Shown one piece after another: positions 4,570 to 32,000 of a stretch of DNA of 32,000 bases. Each line of letters begins with the position of its first letter. Position 1 is the first letter of the stretch. Made by a program: the position numbers and the translations under genes. The notes beneath the pieces were generated by a model. That model searched no databases and was not told the origin of the DNA. It saw nothing but the letters and a program-made list of their open reading frames with translations. Origin of the DNA: Geotalea uraniireducens Rf4 (GTDB taxonomy: Bacteria > Desulfobacterota > Desulfuromonadia > Geobacterales > Geobacteraceae); assembly GCF_000016745.1 (NCBI RefSeq), contig NC_009483.1, forward strand, positions 4,830,001 through 4,862,000. Direction: 5' to 3'.

Positions 4570-6054
4570 ATGGCCTTGCGTGTATACAATACCCTTACGG
4601 GAACCAAAGAAGATTTCGTACCGATCGAACCGGGAAAAGTCAAAATGTACGTGTGCGGCGTGACGGTTTACGACCATTGCCACATCGGCCATGCCCGTGC
4701 CAACGTGGTCTTTGACGTAATTTACCGCTACCTCCGGTCACTGGGCCTGGAGGTGAACTATGTGCGCAACTACACCGACATCGACGACAAGATCATCAAC
4801 CGGGCCAACCGGGAAGGGGTGGCATACGATGCGATCTCGGAACGCTTCATCAAGGAGTTTGACCGGGACATGGCGCAACTCGGCCTCCTGCTCCCCACCA
4901 GTCAGCCGAAGGCAACCGAGCACATCCCGGAGATCATTACACTGGTGCAAACCCTTATCGATAAAGGGTTTGCCTATCAAATGGGAGGAGATGTCAACTT
5001 CTGCGTGGAGAAGTTCGACCCGTACCTCAAACTCTCCAAGCGAAATCTGGAGGATATGCAGGCCGGCGCCAGAATCGAAGTGGACGAGCGGAAACGCCAC
5101 CCCATGGATTTCGTCCTCTGGAAGGAAGCGAAGCCGGGCGAGCCTTTCTGGGAATCGCCCTGGGGCAAAGGTCGTCCAGGATGGCACATAGAATGCTCAG
5201 CCATGAGCATGAAGTACCTGGGGGAGACCTTCGACATCCATGGCGGCGGCAAGGACCTGGTATTCCCCCACCACGAAAACGAAATCGCCCAGTCTGAAGC
5301 CGCCTCCGGCAAGCCGTTCGTCAAATACTGGCTGCACAATGGCTTTGTCAACATCAACTCGGAAAAGATGAGCAAGTCTCTTGGCAACTTTTTTACCATC
5401 AAAGAGGTGCTGGATAAGTACGACAGCGAGGTCCTCCGCTTCTTTCTCCTCTCCGCCCACTATCGGTCACCGCTCGATTTTTCCGACCAGAACCTGACAG
5501 AAGCGGAAACCGGCATGGAGAGGATTTACAAGGCGCTGGTTGCCATCGACGAAACCTTGGCATCAAACCCGGCCACCGGCGGGGAGGAAATCGACGCGAG
5601 CTCTCTCGGCGAGGCCGAGCGCGAACTCTTCGACAAATCCGGCTCACTGCCGCTGCGCTTCCGGGAAGCAATGGATGACGACTTCAATACTGCTTTGGCA
5701 ATGGGGCACATCTTTGATCTGGTGCGTTGCGTAAACCGCGTTCTGAGCGAAGCCAAGGAGCGCAGCAACACCTTGTCGGCGCTCTGCGCCCAGGTTAAGG
5801 CCAATATCGGAAAGATCGCCGACGTCCTCGGCATTTTCACTTCCGAACCGGCATCCTTGCTGACAAGATTAAAGGATCGAAAAGCGAGCGAGCTTGATAT
5901 TTCTGTTGAAGAAATCGAACGGCTCATTACGGAGCGCGCAGCAGCAAGGAAGGCTAAAGACTTCAAGCGAAGCGACGAGATACGGGATTTTCTCCTCGGC
6001 AAGAATATTGTGCTCCTCGATTCCGCACAAGGGACAAGCTGGAGCGTAAAGTAA
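4570..6054 (+). CDS. cysS: Cysteine--tRNA ligase
   Basis: Class I synthetase motifs HIGHARANV (HIGH) and [10 protein letters not shown] (KMSKS). GWHIECSAM zinc-site region. RBS AGGA lies 6 nt upstream of the ATG. Confidence 0.97.
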
Positions 6055-8976: not shown

Positions 8977-9251
8977 TCGTTTTTTGAACAAAAAACACCC
9001 TAGTGACTAGGAGGGCAAGTCAGCTAGGGCATAATGAGGATCTTTCGATCCTCGCAACTCTTATCTTTGATTATAGTATACCGCTGAGGTCACATTGCTG
9101 CAAGCAAAAAAAATGAAGTCAACCTTCCTGACATATAACGGGCCAGCGGGTATCGGACACGGGCTCAAACCTTGCGTTTGGACTTTACAAGATTGCACTC
9201 TACGGCTCGATTGTGCTATAAATTCTAAATCTAATCAGAGGAGAGCACTTC

Positions 9252-13959: not shown

Positions 13960-14160
13960 AAAACCCCCTTGTTCCCCTCGGTCGGAGTGGTTTTTTCACC
14001 TTCCAGCCAGGTCTCCTGGCTTGGGGATCATCCCGCCTGCCGCGCCTTCCCGTCATCAGACAGTGGCATCTCTGCGGCATCGGTCCCCCTTTACAGTTGC
14101 GGGGCAGCACCGGTCTTGCACCGGTTTCCCTTGACTGAAAGGTCGTTGTTTCAATTTTAA
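13960..14160 (-). promoter_or_regulatory. Cobalamin (B12) riboswitch upstream of cbiM
   Basis: The minus strand reads AGGGAAACCGGTGCAAGACCGGTGCTGCCCCGCAACTGTAA ... GCCACTG ... GGGAAGGCG ... AGCCAGGAGACCTGGC (B12 box). Confidence 0.9.
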
Positions 14161-17067: not shown

Positions 17068-17670
17068 TTAGCCGTTGAGTAGCTTCACGACTGCCTTGCC
17101 GTCCTCGTAGTAGTCGATGACGTTGAAACCGCAGTAGCTCTGCTCGACATTGAACAGGGCCGACAGCGGCGCGCCGATGGCGTTGAGGAGAATGAGCCGG
17201 TTGACCCCGCCGTGGGCCACAATGAGCACATTTTCTCCCCGGTGGCGGGCGACGATATCGCTGACGACCGGCATCACCCGGTTGTTCACGTCAAGCAGGT
17301 TCTCACCTTCGGGAACCCGGTAGTTCACGATGTCGTTCAGCCGCGCCTGCCACTCTGTCGGGTATTTCTCCATCAGTTCGTTCCAGGTCTTCCCCTCCCA
17401 GATGCCGACGTTCAGTTCGCGCAGCTCTCTATGTTTTACCGGTTTCACGCCAAGGTGGCTGCCGAGCAGCTCCGCCCCCATGACGCAGCGTGTCAGATCG
17501 CTCGTGTAGCAGGCGCTGATTTCAATCCCGGCAAAGCGCTCTTTGAGCATTTCATACTGGGCCATTCCATGGGGAGTCAGCGCCACATCGGCATGGCCGT
17601 TATAGCGGCGTGTGCCGGCCCCCACCACCTCGCCGTGGCGGATCAAGTAAATGCGTGTTTTTGCAGTCAT
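17068..17670 (-). CDS. cobC: Alpha-ribazole phosphatase (histidine phosphatase family)
   Basis: RIYLIRHGE catalytic motif and a later AHGG. ATGA overlap with the cobS stop. Located between cobS and cbiA. Confidence 0.8.
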   Translation of the reverse strand: MTAKTRIYLIRHGEVVGAGTRRYNGHADVALTPHGMAQYEMLKERFAGIEISACYTSDLTRCVMGAELLGSHLGVKPVKHRELRELNVGIWEGKTWNELMEKYPTEWQARLNDIVNYRVPEGENLLDVNNRVMPVVSDIVARHRGENVLIVAHGGVNRLILLNAIGAPLSALFNVEQSYCGFNVIDYYEDGKAVVKLLNG

Positions 17671-18413
17671 AATTTTCCTCCAGCCAACGCCAGCAGGGCC
17701 AGCAGGCATAAAATCTCGTTCAATTCGTTCACACAACCGATGACATCACCGGTAATTCCCCCCAGCCGCTTATGAAACCAGGACTTCGAAATCCAGGTGG
17801 CGAGGCAGACAGCCACGGTGCAGTATGCCCCCCATATCCCCAGCAGCAGATAGCCGGCAACAAGGCTCACTACAAAGGCGATGGCGAACTGGGGAAGGCC
17901 GGCGCCGCCGATAAAGGCGGAACCGAGACCGTCCTGTCGTGCCTTTTTCGCCCCCACCGTCAGCTGAACCTGGCTGAAACGGGCGATCAGGGGAAAAAAC
18001 AGAAGCGCCTCGCGCTTATATTCCAGCGGGATGTTCAGCAGGGCCTGGTATTTGAGCAGGATGCCCAGCACCAGCCCGACAACCCCCACAGCGCCGGTAC
18101 GGGAGTCCTTCATCACCGAGAGAAAGCGTTCCCGCCCCCCCCGCGCGGCCAAACCGTCACAGACGTCGGCCAACCCGTCCAGGTGTAGCGCTCCGGTCAC
18201 CACCGCCAGCACCGTCACCAGGAGGAGATCGGTCACCGATCGCGGCAGGGCAAGACCGAGCACGTAGTCGATACCGGCCAGGAAAAGTCCGATGGTAAGC
18301 CCCACCAGCGGAAACAGGGCCATGGAACGGCCCAGGTCCTCCTCCTCGCAGCGGACGGAAAAAGGGAGCGGAATTATGGTCAGAAATTGCAGGGCGATAA
18401 GATATAGTCTCAT
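17667..18413 (-). CDS. cobS: Adenosylcobinamide-GDP ribazoletransferase (cobalamin synthase)
   Basis: Polytopic membrane protein starting MRLYLIALQFLTIIPLP, with the HLDGLADVCDG motif. Confidence 0.92.
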   Translation of the reverse strand: MRLYLIALQFLTIIPLPFSVRCEEEDLGRSMALFPLVGLTIGLFLAGIDYVLGLALPRSVTDLLLVTVLAVVTGALHLDGLADVCDGLAARGGRERFLSVMKDSRTGAVGVVGLVLGILLKYQALLNIPLEYKREALLFFPLIARFSQVQLTVGAKKARQDGLGSAFIGGAGLPQFAIAFVVSLVAGYLLLGIWGAYCTVAVCLATWISKSWFHKRLGGITGDVIGCVNELNEILCLLALLALAGGKL

Positions 18414-18417
18414 AATC

Positions 18418-18488
18418 GGGATCCGGGATCTGGGACCGGGAATCTGGAAGAGCCTTTACTGATCCCGGATCCCTGTTCCCCGATTCCT
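18418..18488. repeat. Heptamer-built palindrome occupying almost the whole cobT-cobS spacer
   Basis: Four GGGAWCN units (gggatcc gggatct gggaccg ggaatct) are followed by four inverted units (gatcccg gatccct gttcccc gattcct). A perfect 13-bp stem forms between GGGATCCGGGATC (18418-18430) and GATCCCGGATCCC (18461-18473). Confidence 0.7.
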
Positions 18489-18493
18489 GCCTT

Positions 18494-19555
18494 TCAGTAC
18501 TCCCCTTCGGCTACCCCGGCTTCTTCAAAGGTGGCCATCTCCTTCAGAATCTTGACTCCAGCCTCGATGAGTCCCATGGCCAGGGCTGCGCCGGTCCCTT
18601 CACCCAGGCGAAGCTTGAGGTCCAGGATCGGTTCCGCTCCGATACGGTCCAGCATGAAACGATGTCCGATCTCCACCGACTCGTGGGCGGCAAAGATATA
18701 CTCCTTCACGTGCGGGTTCAGCTCGGAGGCGATGAGTGCACCGGCAGTGGAAATGAAACCGTCAATCACCACCGGCTGCCGGTTGGCTGCGGCCCCGAGC
18801 ACGAGCCCGGCTATGGCGGCAATCTCCAGCCCCCCTACCTTGGCCAGCACGTCGAGCGGGTCGCGTGGATCCGGCTTGTTCACCGCCAGCCCCTGTTCGA
18901 TGACCCGGATTTTATGGGACAACGCCGCATCGTTGATGCCGGTGCCGCGGTGGGTGACCTCCTTGACCGTTTTACCGGAAATGGCGGCAATAATGGCGGA
19001 CGACGGGGTGGTGTTGCCGATCCCCATCTCACCGGTGCCGAGCATGGCCACCCCTTCGGCCTTTGCCCGGTTGGCCAGCCCGATTCCCACTTCTATCGCG
19101 GCAATCGCCTCTTCGCGGCTCATGGCCGGCCCCTTGGCAAAGTTGCGCGTCCCCTTCGCCACTTTATCGATGATCAGCCCCGGTGTCGGTTCGAAGTCGA
19201 AATCGACCCCCACATCCACAACCCGCACCTCGGCTCCCGTATGTCGAGCCAGGACGTTCACCCCTGCTCCGCCGCGGAGAAAATTGAAGACCATCTGCGG
19301 GGTCACCTCCTTGGGGAAGGCCGACACCCCCTCCTCGACCACGCCGTGATCACCGGCAAAGGTGAAGACAATCTTCTTGGCGGTATCCGGCTGCAGATCG
19401 CCGGTGATGGCGACAAAGCGGCGGGCGAACTCTTCCAGTCGGCCGAGCGAGCCGAGCGGCTTGGTCTTTTTGTCCAGTTTCGCCTGGGCCTTTGCCAGCA
19501 TGACGGCATCGACCGGCTGAATTTTTGCGAGTGCTTCCTGGAGCAGATTCATCAT
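18494..19555 (-). CDS. cobT: Nicotinate-nucleotide--dimethylbenzimidazole phosphoribosyltransferase
   Basis: GEMGIGNTT motif and an overall CobT-like sequence. RBS GGGAGGA lies upstream of the ATG. Confidence 0.93.
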
Positions 19556-20234: not shown

Positions 20235-20425
20235 CGGGCCTCGGCGCCTCTCCTGCGGAGGTTCCATTGAGCAATCAGCCTGGCAGGTTTCCTGACTTAC
20301 GGGTCACTTTACTTGCCGCGCCTTCCCGATTATATTCAGTGGCACATCAGCGGCTTTCATCACCGTTCACAGTTGCGGGACAGTGGAGGAATTACACCTC
20401 CTTCCCTTTTAACGCTCTTGTTAGT
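20235..20425 (-). promoter_or_regulatory. Cobalamin (B12) riboswitch upstream of cobU
   Basis: The minus strand reads AAGGGAAGGAGGTGTAATTCCTCCACTGTCCCGCAACTGTGA ... GCCACTG ... GGGAAGGCG ... AGTCAGGAAACCTGCC (B12 box). Confidence 0.9.
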
Positions 20426-20465
20426 GAGCGCACCAGATCGAATAACTATTTAATTGTAGGGACGA

Positions 20466-28307: not shown

Positions 28308-28595
28308 TCATGCCAGATGCCATATCCCCGTGGTTTTGATAGCGTCATACATGGCATCGGGGGCAAGATCAATCTCACCCGGCCACGTCACGGCGCCATA
28401 TTCCACAAAAACCCTATCAAATACATTGGGATCAGCCAGCGCTGAAAACACGCCAGCGCTTTGGCTATGGATGAGTTCGTTCATCTCTACCCATCCTTGT
28501 AGCCCATCCAAAAAGCGGACTTTCAACCGAAATCCCGGGTAAGCGGTAACCTCGGCCACACGCCAGGGAGAGCGGGGATTAACAGGTGGAATCAT
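28308..28595 (-). CDS. DUF2442-family small protein
   Basis: WRVAEVTAYPGFRLKVRFLDGLQGWVEMNELI ... YGAVTWPGEIDLAPDAMY matches the DUF2442 pattern by eye. The start is placed at MIPPVNP (28595), which gives an ATGA overlap with the upstream gene. Confidence 0.7.
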   Translation of the reverse strand: MIPPVNPRSPWRVAEVTAYPGFRLKVRFLDGLQGWVEMNELIHSQSAGVFSALADPNVFDRVFVEYGAVTWPGEIDLAPDAMYDAIKTTGIWHLA

Positions 28596-28852
28596 GCCAA
28601 GGGTTGAATCTTTTTGGGGGTCTGATTCTGTTCGCATAGTTGCCAATCCTCCATTAACTCGGCGCGGTGCTCCTGCGCCCATTCCAACACCAATACCAAG
28701 GCTCTTTTGGGAATGTTTCCGGAAAATATCTCCAGGGTACGAATATCAATCAAGATTTCGTATTCTCCATACAAAGCGTGAAAATGCGGAGGAGCGTGTT
28801 CACGCCAGTGCATTTGAATTAAAATTCCATAAAACATGGAAATAGTCGGCAT
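28592..28852 (-). CDS. DUF4160-family small protein
   Basis: MPTISMFYGILIQMHWREHAPPHFHALYGEYE is the characteristic DUF4160 N-terminus. GGAGG RBS. Confidence 0.75.
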   Translation of the reverse strand: MPTISMFYGILIQMHWREHAPPHFHALYGEYEILIDIRTLEIFSGNIPKRALVLVLEWAQEHRAELMEDWQLCEQNQTPKKIQPLA

Positions 28853-29066: not shown

Positions 29067-30131
29067 CTATATCTTCCCTTTCAGGCTGTACACATATGCC
29101 AGTATCTCAGCCACCGCTGCATAGAGGGCTTCCGGAATCTCCTCACCTTCCTTGACCTGGGCATAGAGCTCGCGGGCGAGAAAGCGGTTTTCCACCAGGG
29201 TTATGTTGCTCTCTCTGGCTATCTCCTTGATCCGCTGGGCAAGGAAGTCCGCCCCCTTGGCCAGCACCACCGGTGCGGCCATTTTCTGTCTGTCATACTT
29301 AAGCGCCACGGCAAAGTGGGTCGGGTTGGTTACAACCACATCGGCAGTGGGAATAATGAGTCTCATCCTTCGACGGGCCTGCTCAAACTGCTTCTGCTTG
29401 ATTTTCCCCTTTATATGAGGGTCACCCTCGGAATCCTTGTTTTCATCCTTCACCTCCTGTTTGGTCATCTTCAGGTTTTCAATGAAGCGCCACTTGACAA
29501 AAATAAGATCGAGCACGGACAGGATGAACAAGGCGCCACAGGTATGAAGGACGATCTTGAACGAAATATGGCCGATGAACTCGGTTATCCCGCCGATATC
29601 CATATCCACCAGATAAATCAGATTATTTACCTCGTCCCGCATGACCCGGTAAGCCATGTAACCGACAATCACTATTTTCAGGAACGACTTGAGCACCTGC
29701 ACTGCCGCATCCTTGTTGAAAAGCCGCTTGACGCCCTGAACCGGGTTTAACTTTTCAAAATCAAAACCGATCTTCTCGAATGATGTTGAAATCCCTCCCT
29801 GGCTGATTTCGGCGACGAGCCCGGCGACGACAACCACCAGGAGAAACGGCGCAAGCACCAGTGTCGTGGTGAAAAGGAGCTTCAGCATGAGGGTATAGAC
29901 CCCAGCCTGGGTCATGTCCTGGGTAGCGATACCGGCCAACAGCTCCTTAGCGCTGCCTTTCAGGGTTGAAAACATGAAGCCGCCGGTAACATAGAGGGCA
30001 ATGATACCGGCCATCAAGGTAACCGTCGATGTAAGGTCGCGGCTTCGGGGGATGTTCCCCTTCTCCTTGGCATCGGAGATCCGCTTCCCCGTCGGTTGTT
30101 CTGTTTTTGAATGTTTGTCCTGTTCAGACAT
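29067..30131 (-). CDS. flhB: Flagellar export apparatus switch protein FlhB
   Basis: N-terminus MSEQDKHSKTEQPTGKRISDAKEKGNIPRSRDL, four TM helices, and the NPTH autocleavage site (VVTNPTHFAVALKY). Confidence 0.95.
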   Translation of the reverse strand: MSEQDKHSKTEQPTGKRISDAKEKGNIPRSRDLTSTVTLMAGIIALYVTGGFMFSTLKGSAKELLAGIATQDMTQAGVYTLMLKLLFTTTLVLAPFLLVVVVAGLVAEISQGGISTSFEKIGFDFEKLNPVQGVKRLFNKDAAVQVLKSFLKIVIVGYMAYRVMRDEVNNLIYLVDMDIGGITEFIGHISFKIVLHTCGALFILSVLDLIFVKWRFIENLKMTKQEVKDENKDSEGDPHIKGKIKQKQFEQARRRMRLIIPTADVVVTNPTHFAVALKYDRQKMAAPVVLAKGADFLAQRIKEIARESNITLVENRFLARELYAQVKEGEEIPEALYAAVAEILAYVYSLKGKI

Positions 30132-30140
30132 GGGGTAGGC

Positions 30141-30926
30141 CTAGGAGAGGAGCTTGAAGAGTGTCTTTATCTGCCCGTCTATGCCGCCGAACGCGTTCTC
30201 CAAGGTACGGAGGAAAGTCAAGAGCGACAGTCCGAGGGCCAGAAAACCGATACCGATGTTGAGCGGCATGCTTACCATAAAAATGTTCATCTGCGGGAAT
30301 GAGCGGGCCATTATGCCGAGGGCTACACTGGTGGCCAGCAACGCCACCATTATCGGCGCTGATAGTTTTATGGCCAGGATAAAGATCGCCCCGGTAGTAG
30401 TAATGATGAATTGCATGAGACCGCCGCTCATATGCCAAGCCCCCACGGGAATAACGCGGTAACTCTCCACGATGGCACGGATGAAAATATGGTGAACCCC
30501 CAGGGAGAGGAAAAGAAGCATTGCCAGTATACCTTGCAGCAGGGCCACGGTCGGGACATTTGCCTGGGTGTTCGGGTCGAACAAAGAGGCCATGGATATG
30601 CCCATCTGCATGCCGACGATCTGACCGCAGAATTCGACGGCGGCGAATATGGCCTGGGATATGATGCCGATGGTGAGGCCGATCAAGGTTTCGCGGACGA
30701 CAAGGAGACTCAGCGAGATGGAATCCGAAGGGAGGGGGGGTATCTGCGTCCTGATCACCGGATAGAGAAGGAGGGCCATCACCATGATGACAGCGGCCTT
30801 GACCCGTACCGGCACGGATTTGGAGCCGAACAGGGGAATTGCTGCGAATAGCCCGGCCATCCGCCCCACGACAAGACTGAATAGCGTAAGATCATTGATA
30901 GTGGATAAAGGGATGGCGGGGAACAC
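30141..30926 (-). CDS. fliR: Flagellar export apparatus protein FliR
   Basis: 261-aa polytopic membrane protein between fliQ and flhB. GTG start 2 nt after the fliQ stop, with GAGG upstream. Confidence 0.92.
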   Translation of the reverse strand: MFPAIPLSTINDLTLFSLVVGRMAGLFAAIPLFGSKSVPVRVKAAVIMVMALLLYPVIRTQIPPLPSDSISLSLLVVRETLIGLTIGIISQAIFAAVEFCGQIVGMQMGISMASLFDPNTQANVPTVALLQGILAMLLFLSLGVHHIFIRAIVESYRVIPVGAWHMSGGLMQFIITTTGAIFILAIKLSAPIMVALLATSVALGIMARSFPQMNIFMVSMPLNIGIGFLALGLSLLTFLRTLENAFGGIDGQIKTLFKLLS

Positions 30927-30928
30927 GG

Positions 30929-31198
30929 TCAGTGCCTCATATTTGCTATCATGCCGTAAATCTCGCGGGTAAAGTCACCCATGTAGCTCATCATCCATGG
31001 GAAGAAGATGACCAGGGCCACCATGACCGCCGCTATCTTGGGGGCAAAGGCGAGGGTCGCCTCATTGATCGAGGTAACCGCCTGGAAGATGCTGATCAGC
31101 AACCCGACGACCAGGCTGAAGATCAGGAGTGGAGCAGACAAAAGGAGCGTCGCCTCAAAACTGCGACGTGCCAGCTGGACAACCAGTTCGGGTGTCAT
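30929..31198 (-). CDS. fliQ: Flagellar export apparatus protein FliQ
   Basis: 89 aa with two TM helices and a typical FliQ sequence (LLLSAPLLIFSLVVGLLISIFQAVTSINE). RBS GGAGG at 31205-31209. Confidence 0.95.
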   Translation of the reverse strand: MTPELVVQLARRSFEATLLLSAPLLIFSLVVGLLISIFQAVTSINEATLAFAPKIAAVMVALVIFFPWMMSYMGDFTREIYGMIANMRH

Positions 31199-31221
31199 AA
31201 AAAACCTCCGGAAATCAGGTT

Positions 31222-31347
31222 CGAGGAACGAGGAACGAGGAACGAGGAACGAGGAACGAGGAACGAGGAACGAGGAACGAGGAACGAGGAACGAGGAACG
31301 AGGAACGAGGAACGAGGAACGAGGAACGAGGTTCGAGGTTCGAGGTT
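31222..31347. repeat. Heptanucleotide tandem array: 15 perfect CGAGGAA units followed by 3 CGAGGTT units
   Basis: Counted directly. Unit starts fall every 7 nt from 31222 to 31320 (CGAGGAA) and at 31327, 31334 and 31341 (CGAGGTT). A degenerate tcaggtt unit precedes the array. Confidence 0.97.
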
Positions 31348-31359
31348 ATTTTGTCCTTT

Positions 31360-31407
31360 ATCCTCGTTCCTTTATCCTCGTTCCTTTGTTCTCTATCCTC
31401 ATTCCTT
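31360..31407. repeat. Three inverted partial copies of the heptamer array
   Basis: ATCCTCGTTCCTT occurs twice (31360, 31374) and ATCCTCATTCCTT once (31395). TCCTCGTTCC is the exact reverse complement of GGAACGAGGA, which occurs in every register of the array. Confidence 0.85.
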
Positions 31408-31409
31408 TT

Positions 31410-32000
31410 TTATCCAAAACTCTTGACCAGTGAGCCGATGACGAGTCCCCAGCCATCCACCAGGACAAACAGGAGAATCTTAAAGGGGAGTGATATCATG
31501 ACCGGCGGCAGCATCATCATCCCCATGGACATGAGGACCGATGCCACAACCATGTCCAGCACCAGAAAGGGGATGAAAACCAGGAAACCGATCTGGAAGG
31601 CGGTCTTCAGCTCACTGACCATGTATGCCGGAATGAGGGTCAGGGTAGGAATGTCATCGGCGTTTTTCGGACGGGGGAGTTTCGAAAGGCTTAAGAACAG
31701 GGCAAGGTCTTTTTCCCTTACCTGCGAAAGCATGAATTTCCTGACCGGCGCAACAGCTCTTTTGAAAGCTTCTTCCTGGCTGATGGTCTGCGCCTTATAG
31801 GGCTGTAGAGCCTGGGTGTTGATCTGTTGCCATACGGGAGCCATGATGAAAAAGGTCAAAAACAGCGACAGACCGATGATGATCTGATTCGAAGGCGCCT
31901 GCTGCGTACCAATGGCATTTCTTAAAAATGACAGGACCACGACGATGCGCGTGAACGACGTGGTCATCATCAAGAGCCCGGGAGCGAGCGACAGAACCGT
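31410..32000 (-). CDS. fliP: Flagellar export apparatus protein FliP (N-terminus outside window)
   Basis: [47 protein letters not shown] ... is a conserved FliP sequence. The frame stays open to the window end. Stop is TAA at 31410-31412. Confidence 0.93.

Follow-up and report, generated by a model that had tools for sequence, protein, structure and literature searches.

In Geotalea uraniireducens Rf4, the flagellar export operon fliLMNOPQR-flhB contains, between fliP and fliQ, a gap of 211 nt that holds a long perfect heptanucleotide array together with inverted partners. The gap lies in a window of 32,000 nucleotides (NC_009483.1, positions 4,830,001 to 4,862,000; the whole stretch of DNA analysed here), to which all coordinates refer. 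Judged from comparison with close relatives, the locus is a hypervariable and apparently fast-evolving tandem-repeat region, and in an environmental bacterium such hypervariability inside a core flagellar operon, at both strain and species level, is unexpected. On balance, I read the element as a variable-number repeat hairpin between two cistrons; any effect that it has would be quantitative and exerted through spacing, coupling, processing or stability, not through masking of the Shine-Dalgarno (SD) sequence of fliQ.

Anatomy and variation of the fliP-fliQ gap

Both genes lie on the minus strand, and the gap between them comprises positions 31199-31409. The 3' part of fliP (31410..32000, stop codon 31410-31412; Pfam PF00813, E = 1.2e-81) runs past the window end, while fliQ (30929..31198, ATG 31196-31198; PF01313) encodes 89 amino acids and matches WP_011940972 exactly. 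Read along the mRNA, that is on the minus strand, a purine-rich 5' arm (31354..31406), consisting of GGAAUGAGGAUAGAGAACAAA and then two copies of GGAACGAGGAUAAA, has its first base 4 nt past the fliP stop. It is followed by an A-rich spacer between the arms, CAAAAU (31348..31353), by (AACCUCG)3 (31327..31347), by (UUCCUCG)15 (31222..31326; 15.7 copies with 100% matches and a score of 220 in Tandem Repeats Finder, TRF) and by a degenerate end unit, AACCUGA (31215..31221), all these units being delimited by a unit-by-unit parse and allele comparison. The fliQ translation-initiation region (31199..31214) then reads UUUCC-GGAGG-UUUUUU before AUG, in which the SD GGAGG (CCTCC on the plus strand, 31205-31209) stands 12 nt from the array (AACCUGAUUUCC). 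On the plus strand the gap begins with AAAAAACCTCCGGAAA and continues with TCAGGTT, (CGAGGAA)15, (CGAGGTT)3, ATTTTG, a pyrimidine-rich block and TTTT. A preliminary description of this DNA had listed 15 CGAGGAA units, 3 CGAGGTT units and three inverted partners in a gap of 211 nt, with the array ending 12 nt ahead of GGAGG on the mRNA, and all these counts and distances proved exact.

The inverted partners in the 5' arm are, on the plus strand, TCCTCGTTCC at 31361 and 31375 and TCCTCATTCC at 31396, and they are housed in a block of period 14 (31354-31387, TRF). Seven inverted-repeat pairs (I1-I7) with arms of 46-53 nt and 71-78% complementarity connect the two sides of the gap. The 5' arm holds GGAACGAGGA, to which the UUCCUCG unit is perfectly complementary, and as GGAACGAGGA occurs 14 times in the array, 14 pairing registers are available. 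Elsewhere in the window CGAGGAA occurs only three times, without a second copy of the array, and no other tandem repeat exceeds 3.7 copies (TRF), which excludes a chance origin. A perfect inverted repeat of 8 nt (31197-31204 / 31406-31413, ATAAAAAA / TTTTTTAT) also joins the fliP stop region to the spacer between SD and AUG; the A-run past the fliP stop and the U-run past the SD are seen in most related alleles described below and in some other lineages (e.g. L154). An Rf4-specific C-to-U change (AACGAGG to AAUGAGG; 31360-31404, minus strand) creates the only start codon of the gap, and the resulting 14-codon open reading frame (ORF; MRIENKGTRIKERG) in the purine arm, which no other allele has, is probably meaningless.

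Downstream of the array, fliR (30141-30926, minus strand, PF01311) and flhB (29067-30131, minus strand, PF01312) are the final genes of the operon, and the junctions are tight, with 2 nt between fliQ and fliR and 9 nt between fliR and flhB. Like fliP, both appear in the ORF list, and the Pfam E-values for flhB, fliR, fliQ and fliP range from 1e-29 to 1e-127.

An assembly artefact can be dismissed, since the array comes from the finished Rf4 chromosome (CP000698; PMC8516083), whose FliQ, FliR, FlhB, GlgP and histidine-kinase proteins are identical to those encoded in the window, and an independent Logan contig (L128), which ends within the same array, matches it at 100% identity over 3323 nt; homologous alleles elsewhere likewise rule out this explanation. 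Nor is it coding: the plus-strand ORFs that cross it (30932-31426 and 31008-31433, encoding (EERGTRN)n) are antisense to fliQ, allele lengths differ by non-multiples of three, and some units contain TAG.

In order to follow the locus among close relatives, I collected contigs whose encoded FliQ is identical or 99% identical to that of Rf4, here called the Rf4 complex. Nine allele sequences were recovered, one of them partial (L215/216), with gaps of 17, 63, 77, 80, 101, 142, 164 and 211 nt. The shortest is free of any insert (L124, TAA-TATCCGGAGGTTTATTT-ATG) and shares the CCGGAGG core of the fliQ SD with Rf4. A gap of 63 nt (L121/L129) contains a single GGAACGAGGATAAA module and (AACCTCG)2, and in the gaps of 77 and 80 nt (L213 and L123) a 5' arm GGATCGAGG is matched by a 3' arm CCTCGATCC. 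The longer alleles have (AACCTCG)3(TTCCTCG)1 (101 nt, L125), (AACCTAG)10 (142 nt, L122/L126/L127), or nine 5' heptads with about 11 mixed AACCTCG/TTCCTCG units (164 nt, L211/L212/L214), compared with seven 5' heptads and (AACCTCG)3(TTCCTCG)15 in Rf4 (211 nt). The derived unit TTCCTCG is present in 0, 1 or 3 copies in the other alleles. Apart from L211/212/214 (AACCTTA) and L122/126 (AAACTG), every allele of the complex with an insert keeps the degenerate unit at the 3' end of the array.

Over 2132 nt of fliQ-fliR-flhB flank, the lineage with (AACCTAG)10 diverges from Rf4 by only 0.5%, L121 by 2.7%, L123 and L125 by 7.1%, and the insert-free L124, the most diverged member, by 9.1%; most of the complex has an insert. 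Between L123 and L125 the flanks diverge by 0.4%, yet their gaps are unequal by 21 nt. The presence of different arrays in nearly identical lineages means that at least two different units independently reached 10 or more perfect copies. The preliminary description had taken the 15 identical copies as a sign of recent slipped-strand expansion, and the copy-number polymorphism among close relatives, with different arrays at 0.4-0.5% flank divergence, backs this view. Identical alleles also recur in independent samples or assemblies (L122/L126, L211/L212/L214, L222/L223 and L219/L221), so that turnover is fast relative to substitutions but not extremely fast. In five alleles the two arms are balanced in size (5'/3' heptads 2/3.4, 3/4.4, 3/4.4, 5/5.4 and 9/11.7), and only the two alleles with long perfect runs, of 10 and 15 units, are strongly unbalanced (4.1/12.4 and 7/19.4).

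The sister species shows parallel variation. In G. daltonii FRC-32 (CP001390; L220, 689-900) the gap measures 212 nt and contains about 17 heptamers of the type RGTGATT, followed by nine AACYTYG heptamers including (AACCTCG)3-4, and then the SD, while in relatives that share its FliQ the gap is 79 nt (G. toluenoxydans and another assembly) or 107 nt long. As an AACCTCG array adjoins the fliQ SD in both species, it is ancestral to the genus, with a copy number that is variable in both, and AACCUCG, common to G. daltonii and other alleles of the Rf4 complex, is the ancestral heptamer. The gaps of the two finished Geotalea isolate genomes are nearly equal in length (211 and 212 nt) despite their different units, and every allele derived from metagenomes falls below them. 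Chance could explain this, as could assemblies that are biased against long arrays, or it may hint that a certain length is preferred.

The insert is composed of purine-rich modules of 7 or 14 nt just past the fliP stop and an AACCTCG-type pyrimidine-rich array just before the fliQ ribosome-binding site, and I infer from these comparisons that both parts would grow and shrink through slipped-strand mispairing. Template switching at quasi-palindromes is the textbook mechanism for changes that perfect complementarity, and TTCCTCG may have arisen from AACCTCG by such a change, which made it fully complementary to GGAACGAGGA, before slipped-strand mispairing would have expanded it, to 15 perfect copies in Rf4. 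The balance of the arms could reflect mutation templated by the hairpin itself, or selection that holds the fliP stop and the fliQ SD at the feet of one stem.

Predicted folding and access to the fliQ SD

Folded as minus-strand RNA, the locus is predicted to form a stable structure of -94.7 kcal/mol, with a z-score of -4.6 against dinucleotide shuffles (z = -5.1 for the Rf4 gap alone), and the alleles of Rf4, L123, L125, L211 and L213 all give z between -4.6 and -6.5. The predicted hairpin consists of perfect helices of 11 bp with small internal loops between them, and its loop region is formed by CAAAAU together with AACCUCG units. Both the inverted-repeat and the folding analyses support the earlier proposal of a hairpin that could slide as the array pairs with its inverted partners in different registers. 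The spacer would be transcribed within the operon mRNA, so that a long interrupted hairpin, shifting between registers, would lie between the fliP stop and the fliQ SD. Such a stable stem-loop between cistrons, as predicted here, is what characterises repetitive extragenic palindromic (REP)-like elements.

The preliminary description had further proposed that the CCUC in each unit acts as an anti-SD, that AACCUC pairs with GAGGUU in the fliQ SD region, and that copy number thereby tunes fliQ translation. The predictions contradict this. In a partition-function series in which the 15 units were replaced by n = 0-30, the mean unpaired probability of the SD GGAGG stayed at 0.39-0.44, and the probability of pairing between SD and array did not exceed 0.05. 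In all constructs and natural alleles, including the insert-free one, the predicted partners of the SD are instead fliQ codons (about 0.55-0.6). Nor is the complementarity conserved, because the SD of G. daltonii, AGGAG, lacks GAGGUU, even though the AACCTCG array is retained there. Sequestration or titration of the SD is therefore rejected on both grounds. Hairpin energy in the same series falls from -69 to -116 kcal/mol by n = 8 and reaches a plateau thereafter (-125 kcal/mol at n = 15), which makes units 9-15, roughly half of those in Rf4, surplus to pairing.

Other signals were sought in the same region. No sigma-70-like promoter and no sigma-54-like site was found in the gap, and no intrinsic terminator (a GC-rich stem with a U-tract) in 30800-31700. 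Rfam gave no match at the gathering score, only sub-threshold matches to hairpins of eukaryotic miRNA precursors. On the reading that I prefer, the structured spacer would replace tight fliP-fliQ coupling, and could alter re-initiation, processing or segment stability of fliQ-fliR-flhB; the effect of the hairpin would then be passive or quantitative, with units past about eight in excess.

The junction in related genomes and competing explanations

A survey of 80 metagenomic FliQ relatives, in which loci with FliQ at least 70% identical and a measurable gap were taken as Geobacteraceae level, places the Rf4 insert in a wider context. About 26 of 43 such loci (some 60%) have a fliP-fliQ gap of 45-310 nt, and about 40% have a short one, whereas distant relatives and outgroups mostly have 6-24 nt. 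The statement in the preliminary description that fliP and fliQ are normally almost contiguous is thus correct for outgroups and incorrect for the Geobacteraceae, where the expanded gap is the commoner state. At the same loci the other junctions are rarely expanded (fliQ-fliR 3/53, fliR-flhB 2/41). In many expanded gaps, purine-rich repeats after the stop are followed by complementary pyrimidine-rich repeats that end at the SD, with units unrelated to those of Rf4: CAGGTT/AACCTY hexamers (L132, L153, L154 and L156), GGTAAA/CCTTTA units (L159 and L166) or GCACGTY heptamers (L164), and also CRTCTAA in seven copies (L136) and CATGGGAAT in six (L134). Of the 27 long gaps folded, 10 gave a hairpin with z <= -3, to which two further alleles of the Rf4 complex, L211 and L213, can be added. 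Several lineages (L136, L166 and L224) have one array only or an ordinary hairpin, Geomonas sp. RF6 has a plain hairpin, and the G. daltonii complex lacks complementarity between its two arrays (fold z = -1.35, +0.8 and +1.35).

Other relatives (L130, L131, L139, L142 and L217/L218) have a different insert of about 150-300 nt at the same place, without a tandem array. In L130 and L131 it clearly contains a palindrome of the GRCGTAGCGCTGCTACGCC type, which belongs to a 24-member RNA element family in G. metallireducens (Aklujkar et al., PMC2700814). The fliP-fliQ junction therefore collects several kinds of repeat, and the survey shows a family-wide tendency of this one junction to hold repeat modules. 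The same genome paper (Aklujkar et al. 2009, PMC2700814) describes 49 Gmet_H4 elements of four tandem heptamers each (GGGACCG/GGACCGG), many of them in plus/minus pairs, i.e. hairpins, that start at a stop codon; their function is given as unknown, with regulatory RNA or binding of a global regulator as proposals. According to Table S4 and Figure S2 of that paper, Gmet_H443 lies at fliP-fliQ, H442 at fliQ-fliR and H407/408 at cobT-cobS. Gmet_H443 reads AAACCTCC followed by GGGATCGGGGACCGGGATCGGGGACC on the plus strand, the one opposite to the mRNA (there AAACCTCC and then GGGATCGGGGACC and onwards), so that in the transcript the fliQ SD is directly adjoined by pyrimidine-rich heptamers.

The Rf4 window has its own cobT (18494-19555, minus strand) and cobS (17667-18413, minus strand), and the 80 nt between them (18414-18493) are filled by a heptamer-periodic inverted pair, CGGGATC CGGGATC TGGGACC GGGAATC ... 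TGATCCC GGATCCC TGTTCCC CGATTCC. The part at 18414-18445 resembles the Gmet_H4 consensus, and it is at this junction that G. metallireducens has Gmet_H407/408. On the mRNA the pyrimidine arm reaches the ATG of cobS, with no obvious SD, and the fold is no stabler than shuffles (z = -0.15).

The heptamer of Rf4 itself is not confined to the Geobacteraceae. A contig scan for CGAGGAA arrays gave at least 120 stretches from many phyla among the matches listed. Also among the matches listed are metagenome-assembled genomes (MAGs) of Gemmatimonadota, in which inverted pairs (CGAGGAA)2-4 ... (TTCCTCG)2-4 occur at many loci per genome; the contigs belong to Gemmatimonadaceae (L003, L020, L023, L026, L051, L059, L071, L073, L082 and L089) and to Gemmatimonadales STL-GEM5 (L005, L017, L034, L040 and L081). 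Of ten purine-first pairs, nine sit at a distance of 3-26 nt from the stop that ends an ORF of 90 aa or more, and three lie between convergent stops, and each pair encloses a locus-specific GC-rich inner hairpin. Given this stop-proximal site and the inner hairpin, they resemble terminators or REP-like hairpins whose outer stems are heptad repeats, and the Gemmatimonadaceae may carry a convergent counterpart built from the same CGAGGAA/TTCCTCG heptamer directly past stops. STL-GEM5 also shows the opposite arm order, flanking 60-460 nt.

The array could alternatively be an adaptive contingency or rheostat locus, in which heptamer copy number heritably sets fliQ-fliR-flhB expression and hence flagellation, although I regard this as rather unlikely, and give no better chance to the associated idea that hypermutability was selected because motility is alternately useful and costly. 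In Helicobacter pylori fliP and in Campylobacter flhA, flgR and flgS, homopolymer tracts cause phase variation. The long perfect tract, its polymorphism between strains, the runaway of different units in lineages 0.5% apart and the parallel variation in G. daltonii all agree with a contingency locus, and the 7-bp repeats that grade expression of hmw1A and hmw2A in H. influenzae offer a precedent (PMC2424069). However, the tract lies outside any reading frame and any predicted promoter, predicted SD accessibility is independent of copy number, the anti-SD complementarity is absent from G. daltonii, and identical alleles recur in independent samples. A somewhat stronger, yet still doubtful, candidate is a Geobacteraceae class of intercistronic short-tandem-repeat elements at orthologous junctions, with the Gmet_H4 elements as its described example, that function by structure or periodicity instead of sequence, for instance in ribosome hand-off between cistrons, as an RNase processing site, or in IHF/HU binding as the authors of 2009 proposed; it overlaps with the explanation preferred here. 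It would account for Gmet_H443 at fliP-fliQ with its heptamers against the fliQ SD as in Rf4, for heptamer pairs at cobT-cobS in both G. metallireducens and the window, for complementary arms of 6-9-nt repeats of differing sequence in many relatives, for the significant hairpins among long gaps and for the concentration of expansions at fliP-fliQ. It has more difficulty with units that differ wholly between lineages and from the H4 consensus, with the non-complementary arrays of G. daltonii, with lineages that have one array or an ordinary hairpin, with the short gaps in about 40% of loci, and with the unremarkable fold at cobT-cobS. More speculatively, and in my view improbable as a whole, Geobacteraceae might keep heptad- or hexad-periodic modules at fliP-fliQ and cobT-cobS whose sequence turns over while position, polarity and often complementarity persist beyond the genus. 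Equally speculative is that such modules would each comprise a purine-rich array past the upstream stop and a pyrimidine-rich array abutting the downstream SD, turned over by slippage. Persistence of position and polarity despite sequence turnover would point to a function set by structure or periodicity, such as hand-off or coupling across the hairpin or a processing signal, and the output of export-gate genes would then be an evolvable rheostat in free-living bacteria.

The hairpin might instead be a REP-like decay barrier, an RNase III site or a partial attenuator that protects or separates fliL-fliP and lowers fliQ-fliR-flhB. The export gate is FliP5Q4R1-FlhB1, with five copies of FliP, four of FliQ and one each of FliR and FlhB. 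A very stable long predicted hairpin directly 3' of the fliP stop, with its perfect 11-bp helices and small internal loops, would suit such a role, as would the position ahead of the last three genes of the operon, including FliR and FlhB of lowest stoichiometry, and the terminator-like Gemmatimonadaceae hairpins 3-26 nt past stops, some between convergent genes. I nevertheless consider it unlikely, as there is no U-tract terminator signature, FliQ is needed near the level of FliP, the G. daltonii arrays do not form the hairpin, and the insert-free allele and many relatives manage without it. A cluster of binding sites for CsrA is very improbable. CsrA/FliW systems regulate flagellar genes and recognise GGA motifs, and seven AGGA motifs within the 62 nt downstream of the fliP stop (or 15 AGGAA, if the plus strand were transcribed) would on this reading bind or titrate this regulator, for which their density speaks; however, the GGA motifs are predicted inside stems, not loops, 5' arms of other lineages are made of units without GGA (e.g. 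AGGTT, GGTAAA or GGTGATT), and there is no evidence of antisense transcription. A mobile-element insertion deserves hardly any credence. The MITE Chunjie (a miniature inverted-repeat transposable element), reported within an operon and known from the Rf4 genome, is, according to a review, 178-235 bp long, folds at about -98 to -130 kcal/mol, occurs in Rf4 operons, and is defined by 21-bp terminal inverted repeats and a 9-bp target-site duplication (PMC3184786). The Rf4 gap is similar in size (211 nt) and energy (-95 kcal/mol), but its insert ends match at 8 of 21 positions only, no 9-bp duplication is seen against the empty site of L124, the insert is not markedly AT-rich (49% GC), and allele lengths rise in a graded manner from 63 to 211 nt by 7/14-nt units, in place of the presence or absence of an element of fixed size. 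Together these features exclude Chunjie.

My preferred reading, a variable-number repeat hairpin of passive or quantitative effect, has observations of its own to contend with. Two independent expansions to 10 or more perfect units at the same site in lineages 0.5% apart, the large arrays that both finished Geotalea genomes carry (211 and 212 nt) and the fact that about 60% of Geobacteraceae-level relatives retain an expanded gap are together more than expected of a purely neutral spacer, and leave room for selection on length or variability. The identity of several alleles across independent samples and assemblies, by which turnover is not extremely fast, also counts against it. Moreover, short-read contigs break at long arrays (L127, L128, L215 and L216), which biases the recovered allele spectrum towards short ones, and equilibrium folding ignores co-transcriptional folding, ribosomes, S1 and RNases.

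Contingency-type repeats have been studied almost wholly in host-adapted pathogens, whereas here the repeat lies in the core flagellar export operon of an environmental metal-reducer, with array variation running parallel in the sister species and with an unexplained, previously annotated heptamer element at the same junction in G. metallireducens. If copy number alters the output of FliQ, FliR and FlhB, it would constitute a heritable and rapidly evolving control of motility in subsurface Geobacteraceae, whose motility has been connected with the search for insoluble Fe(III) and U(VI), and would open to experiment, for the first time, the 'multicopy nucleotide sequences' that were catalogued in 2009 in Geobacter genomes. 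Should it be neutral, the locus would still be a clean natural case of repeat expansion associated with a hairpin, and would serve as a useful strain marker of high resolution in Geotalea populations.

Elsewhere in the window, all on the minus strand, are two cobalamin riboswitches (13989-14153 and 20265-20452; 123 and 103 bits), which flank cobalamin-biosynthesis genes, and an atoC RNA motif (8991-9082, 101 bits). Between flhB and an alpha-glucan phosphorylase gene lies a DUF4160/DUF2442 gene pair (28308-28852), which is present in Rf4, L122 and L125-L128 and missing in the 97%-identical L121, where the phosphorylase gene directly follows flhB (5132-5139); this looks like the indel of a cassette.

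Comparison with known repeat systems

A literature search found the Rf4 repeat sequence in no paper, and on tandem or heptanucleotide repeats of G. uraniireducens only the G. metallireducens genome paper and surveys of MITE and REP elements surfaced. Elements of this kind, even at this very junction, have thus been described before, whereas no earlier description was found of the Rf4 array, of its extreme copy number or of its polymorphism. The Gmet_H4 elements, its nearest likeness in lineage and location, share with it the family, the operon junction, the heptamer period and the pyrimidine-rich heptamers that abut the fliQ SD, and they have a similar position, as Gmet pairs start at the stop and the Rf4 arms 4 nt past it. 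However, the unit is CCGGTCC and not TTCCTCG or AACCTCG, there are a fixed four units in contrast to 18, and Gmet_H4 is a near-identical multicopy family, whereas it is for the Rf4 array that copy-number variation between strains is seen.

Simple-sequence repeat (SSR) contingency loci include phase-variable flagellar genes, such as H. pylori fliP with its poly-C tract and C. jejuni flhA, flgR and flgS. The Rf4 array, which works in the manner of an SSR or variable-number tandem-repeat locus, resembles them in being a hypermutable repeat at flagellar export or regulatory genes, presumably generated by slipped-strand mispairing, and in combining a long perfect tract (15 perfect and 3 variant units) with copy-number polymorphism in the Rf4 complex; classical tracts lie inside reading frames, where frameshifts switch expression on and off, or in promoter spacers, and the Rf4 tract lies in neither. 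Intercistronic hairpins that set the stability of mRNA segments, such as the E. coli malE-malF REP and the hairpin of the Rhodobacter puf operon, are likewise stable structures between cistrons of one operon directly past the upstream stop, but unlike the Rf4 insert they have a fixed sequence, no expanding tandem repeats and no copy-number polymorphism. The short tandemly repeated repetitive (STRR) sequences of cyanobacteria are heptamer arrays in intergenic regions, also within operons; they share this with Rf4, yet they form families of fixed units dispersed genome-wide, and an inverted partner adjacent to an SD is not among their defining features. The closest known system in unit size and upstream position is that of hmw1A/hmw2A in nontypeable H. 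influenzae, where 9-28 copies of a 7-bp repeat vary between isolates and more repeats give less transcript (PMC2424069). Both are long heptanucleotide arrays upstream of a start codon. Those of hmw belong to the promoter and leader of a surface adhesin of a host-adapted pathogen, where the measured effect on transcript grades expression and does not switch the reading frame, whereas the Rf4 array, known here from its sequence, is intercistronic, has an inverted partner and resides in the core flagellar operon of a free-living subsurface bacterium.

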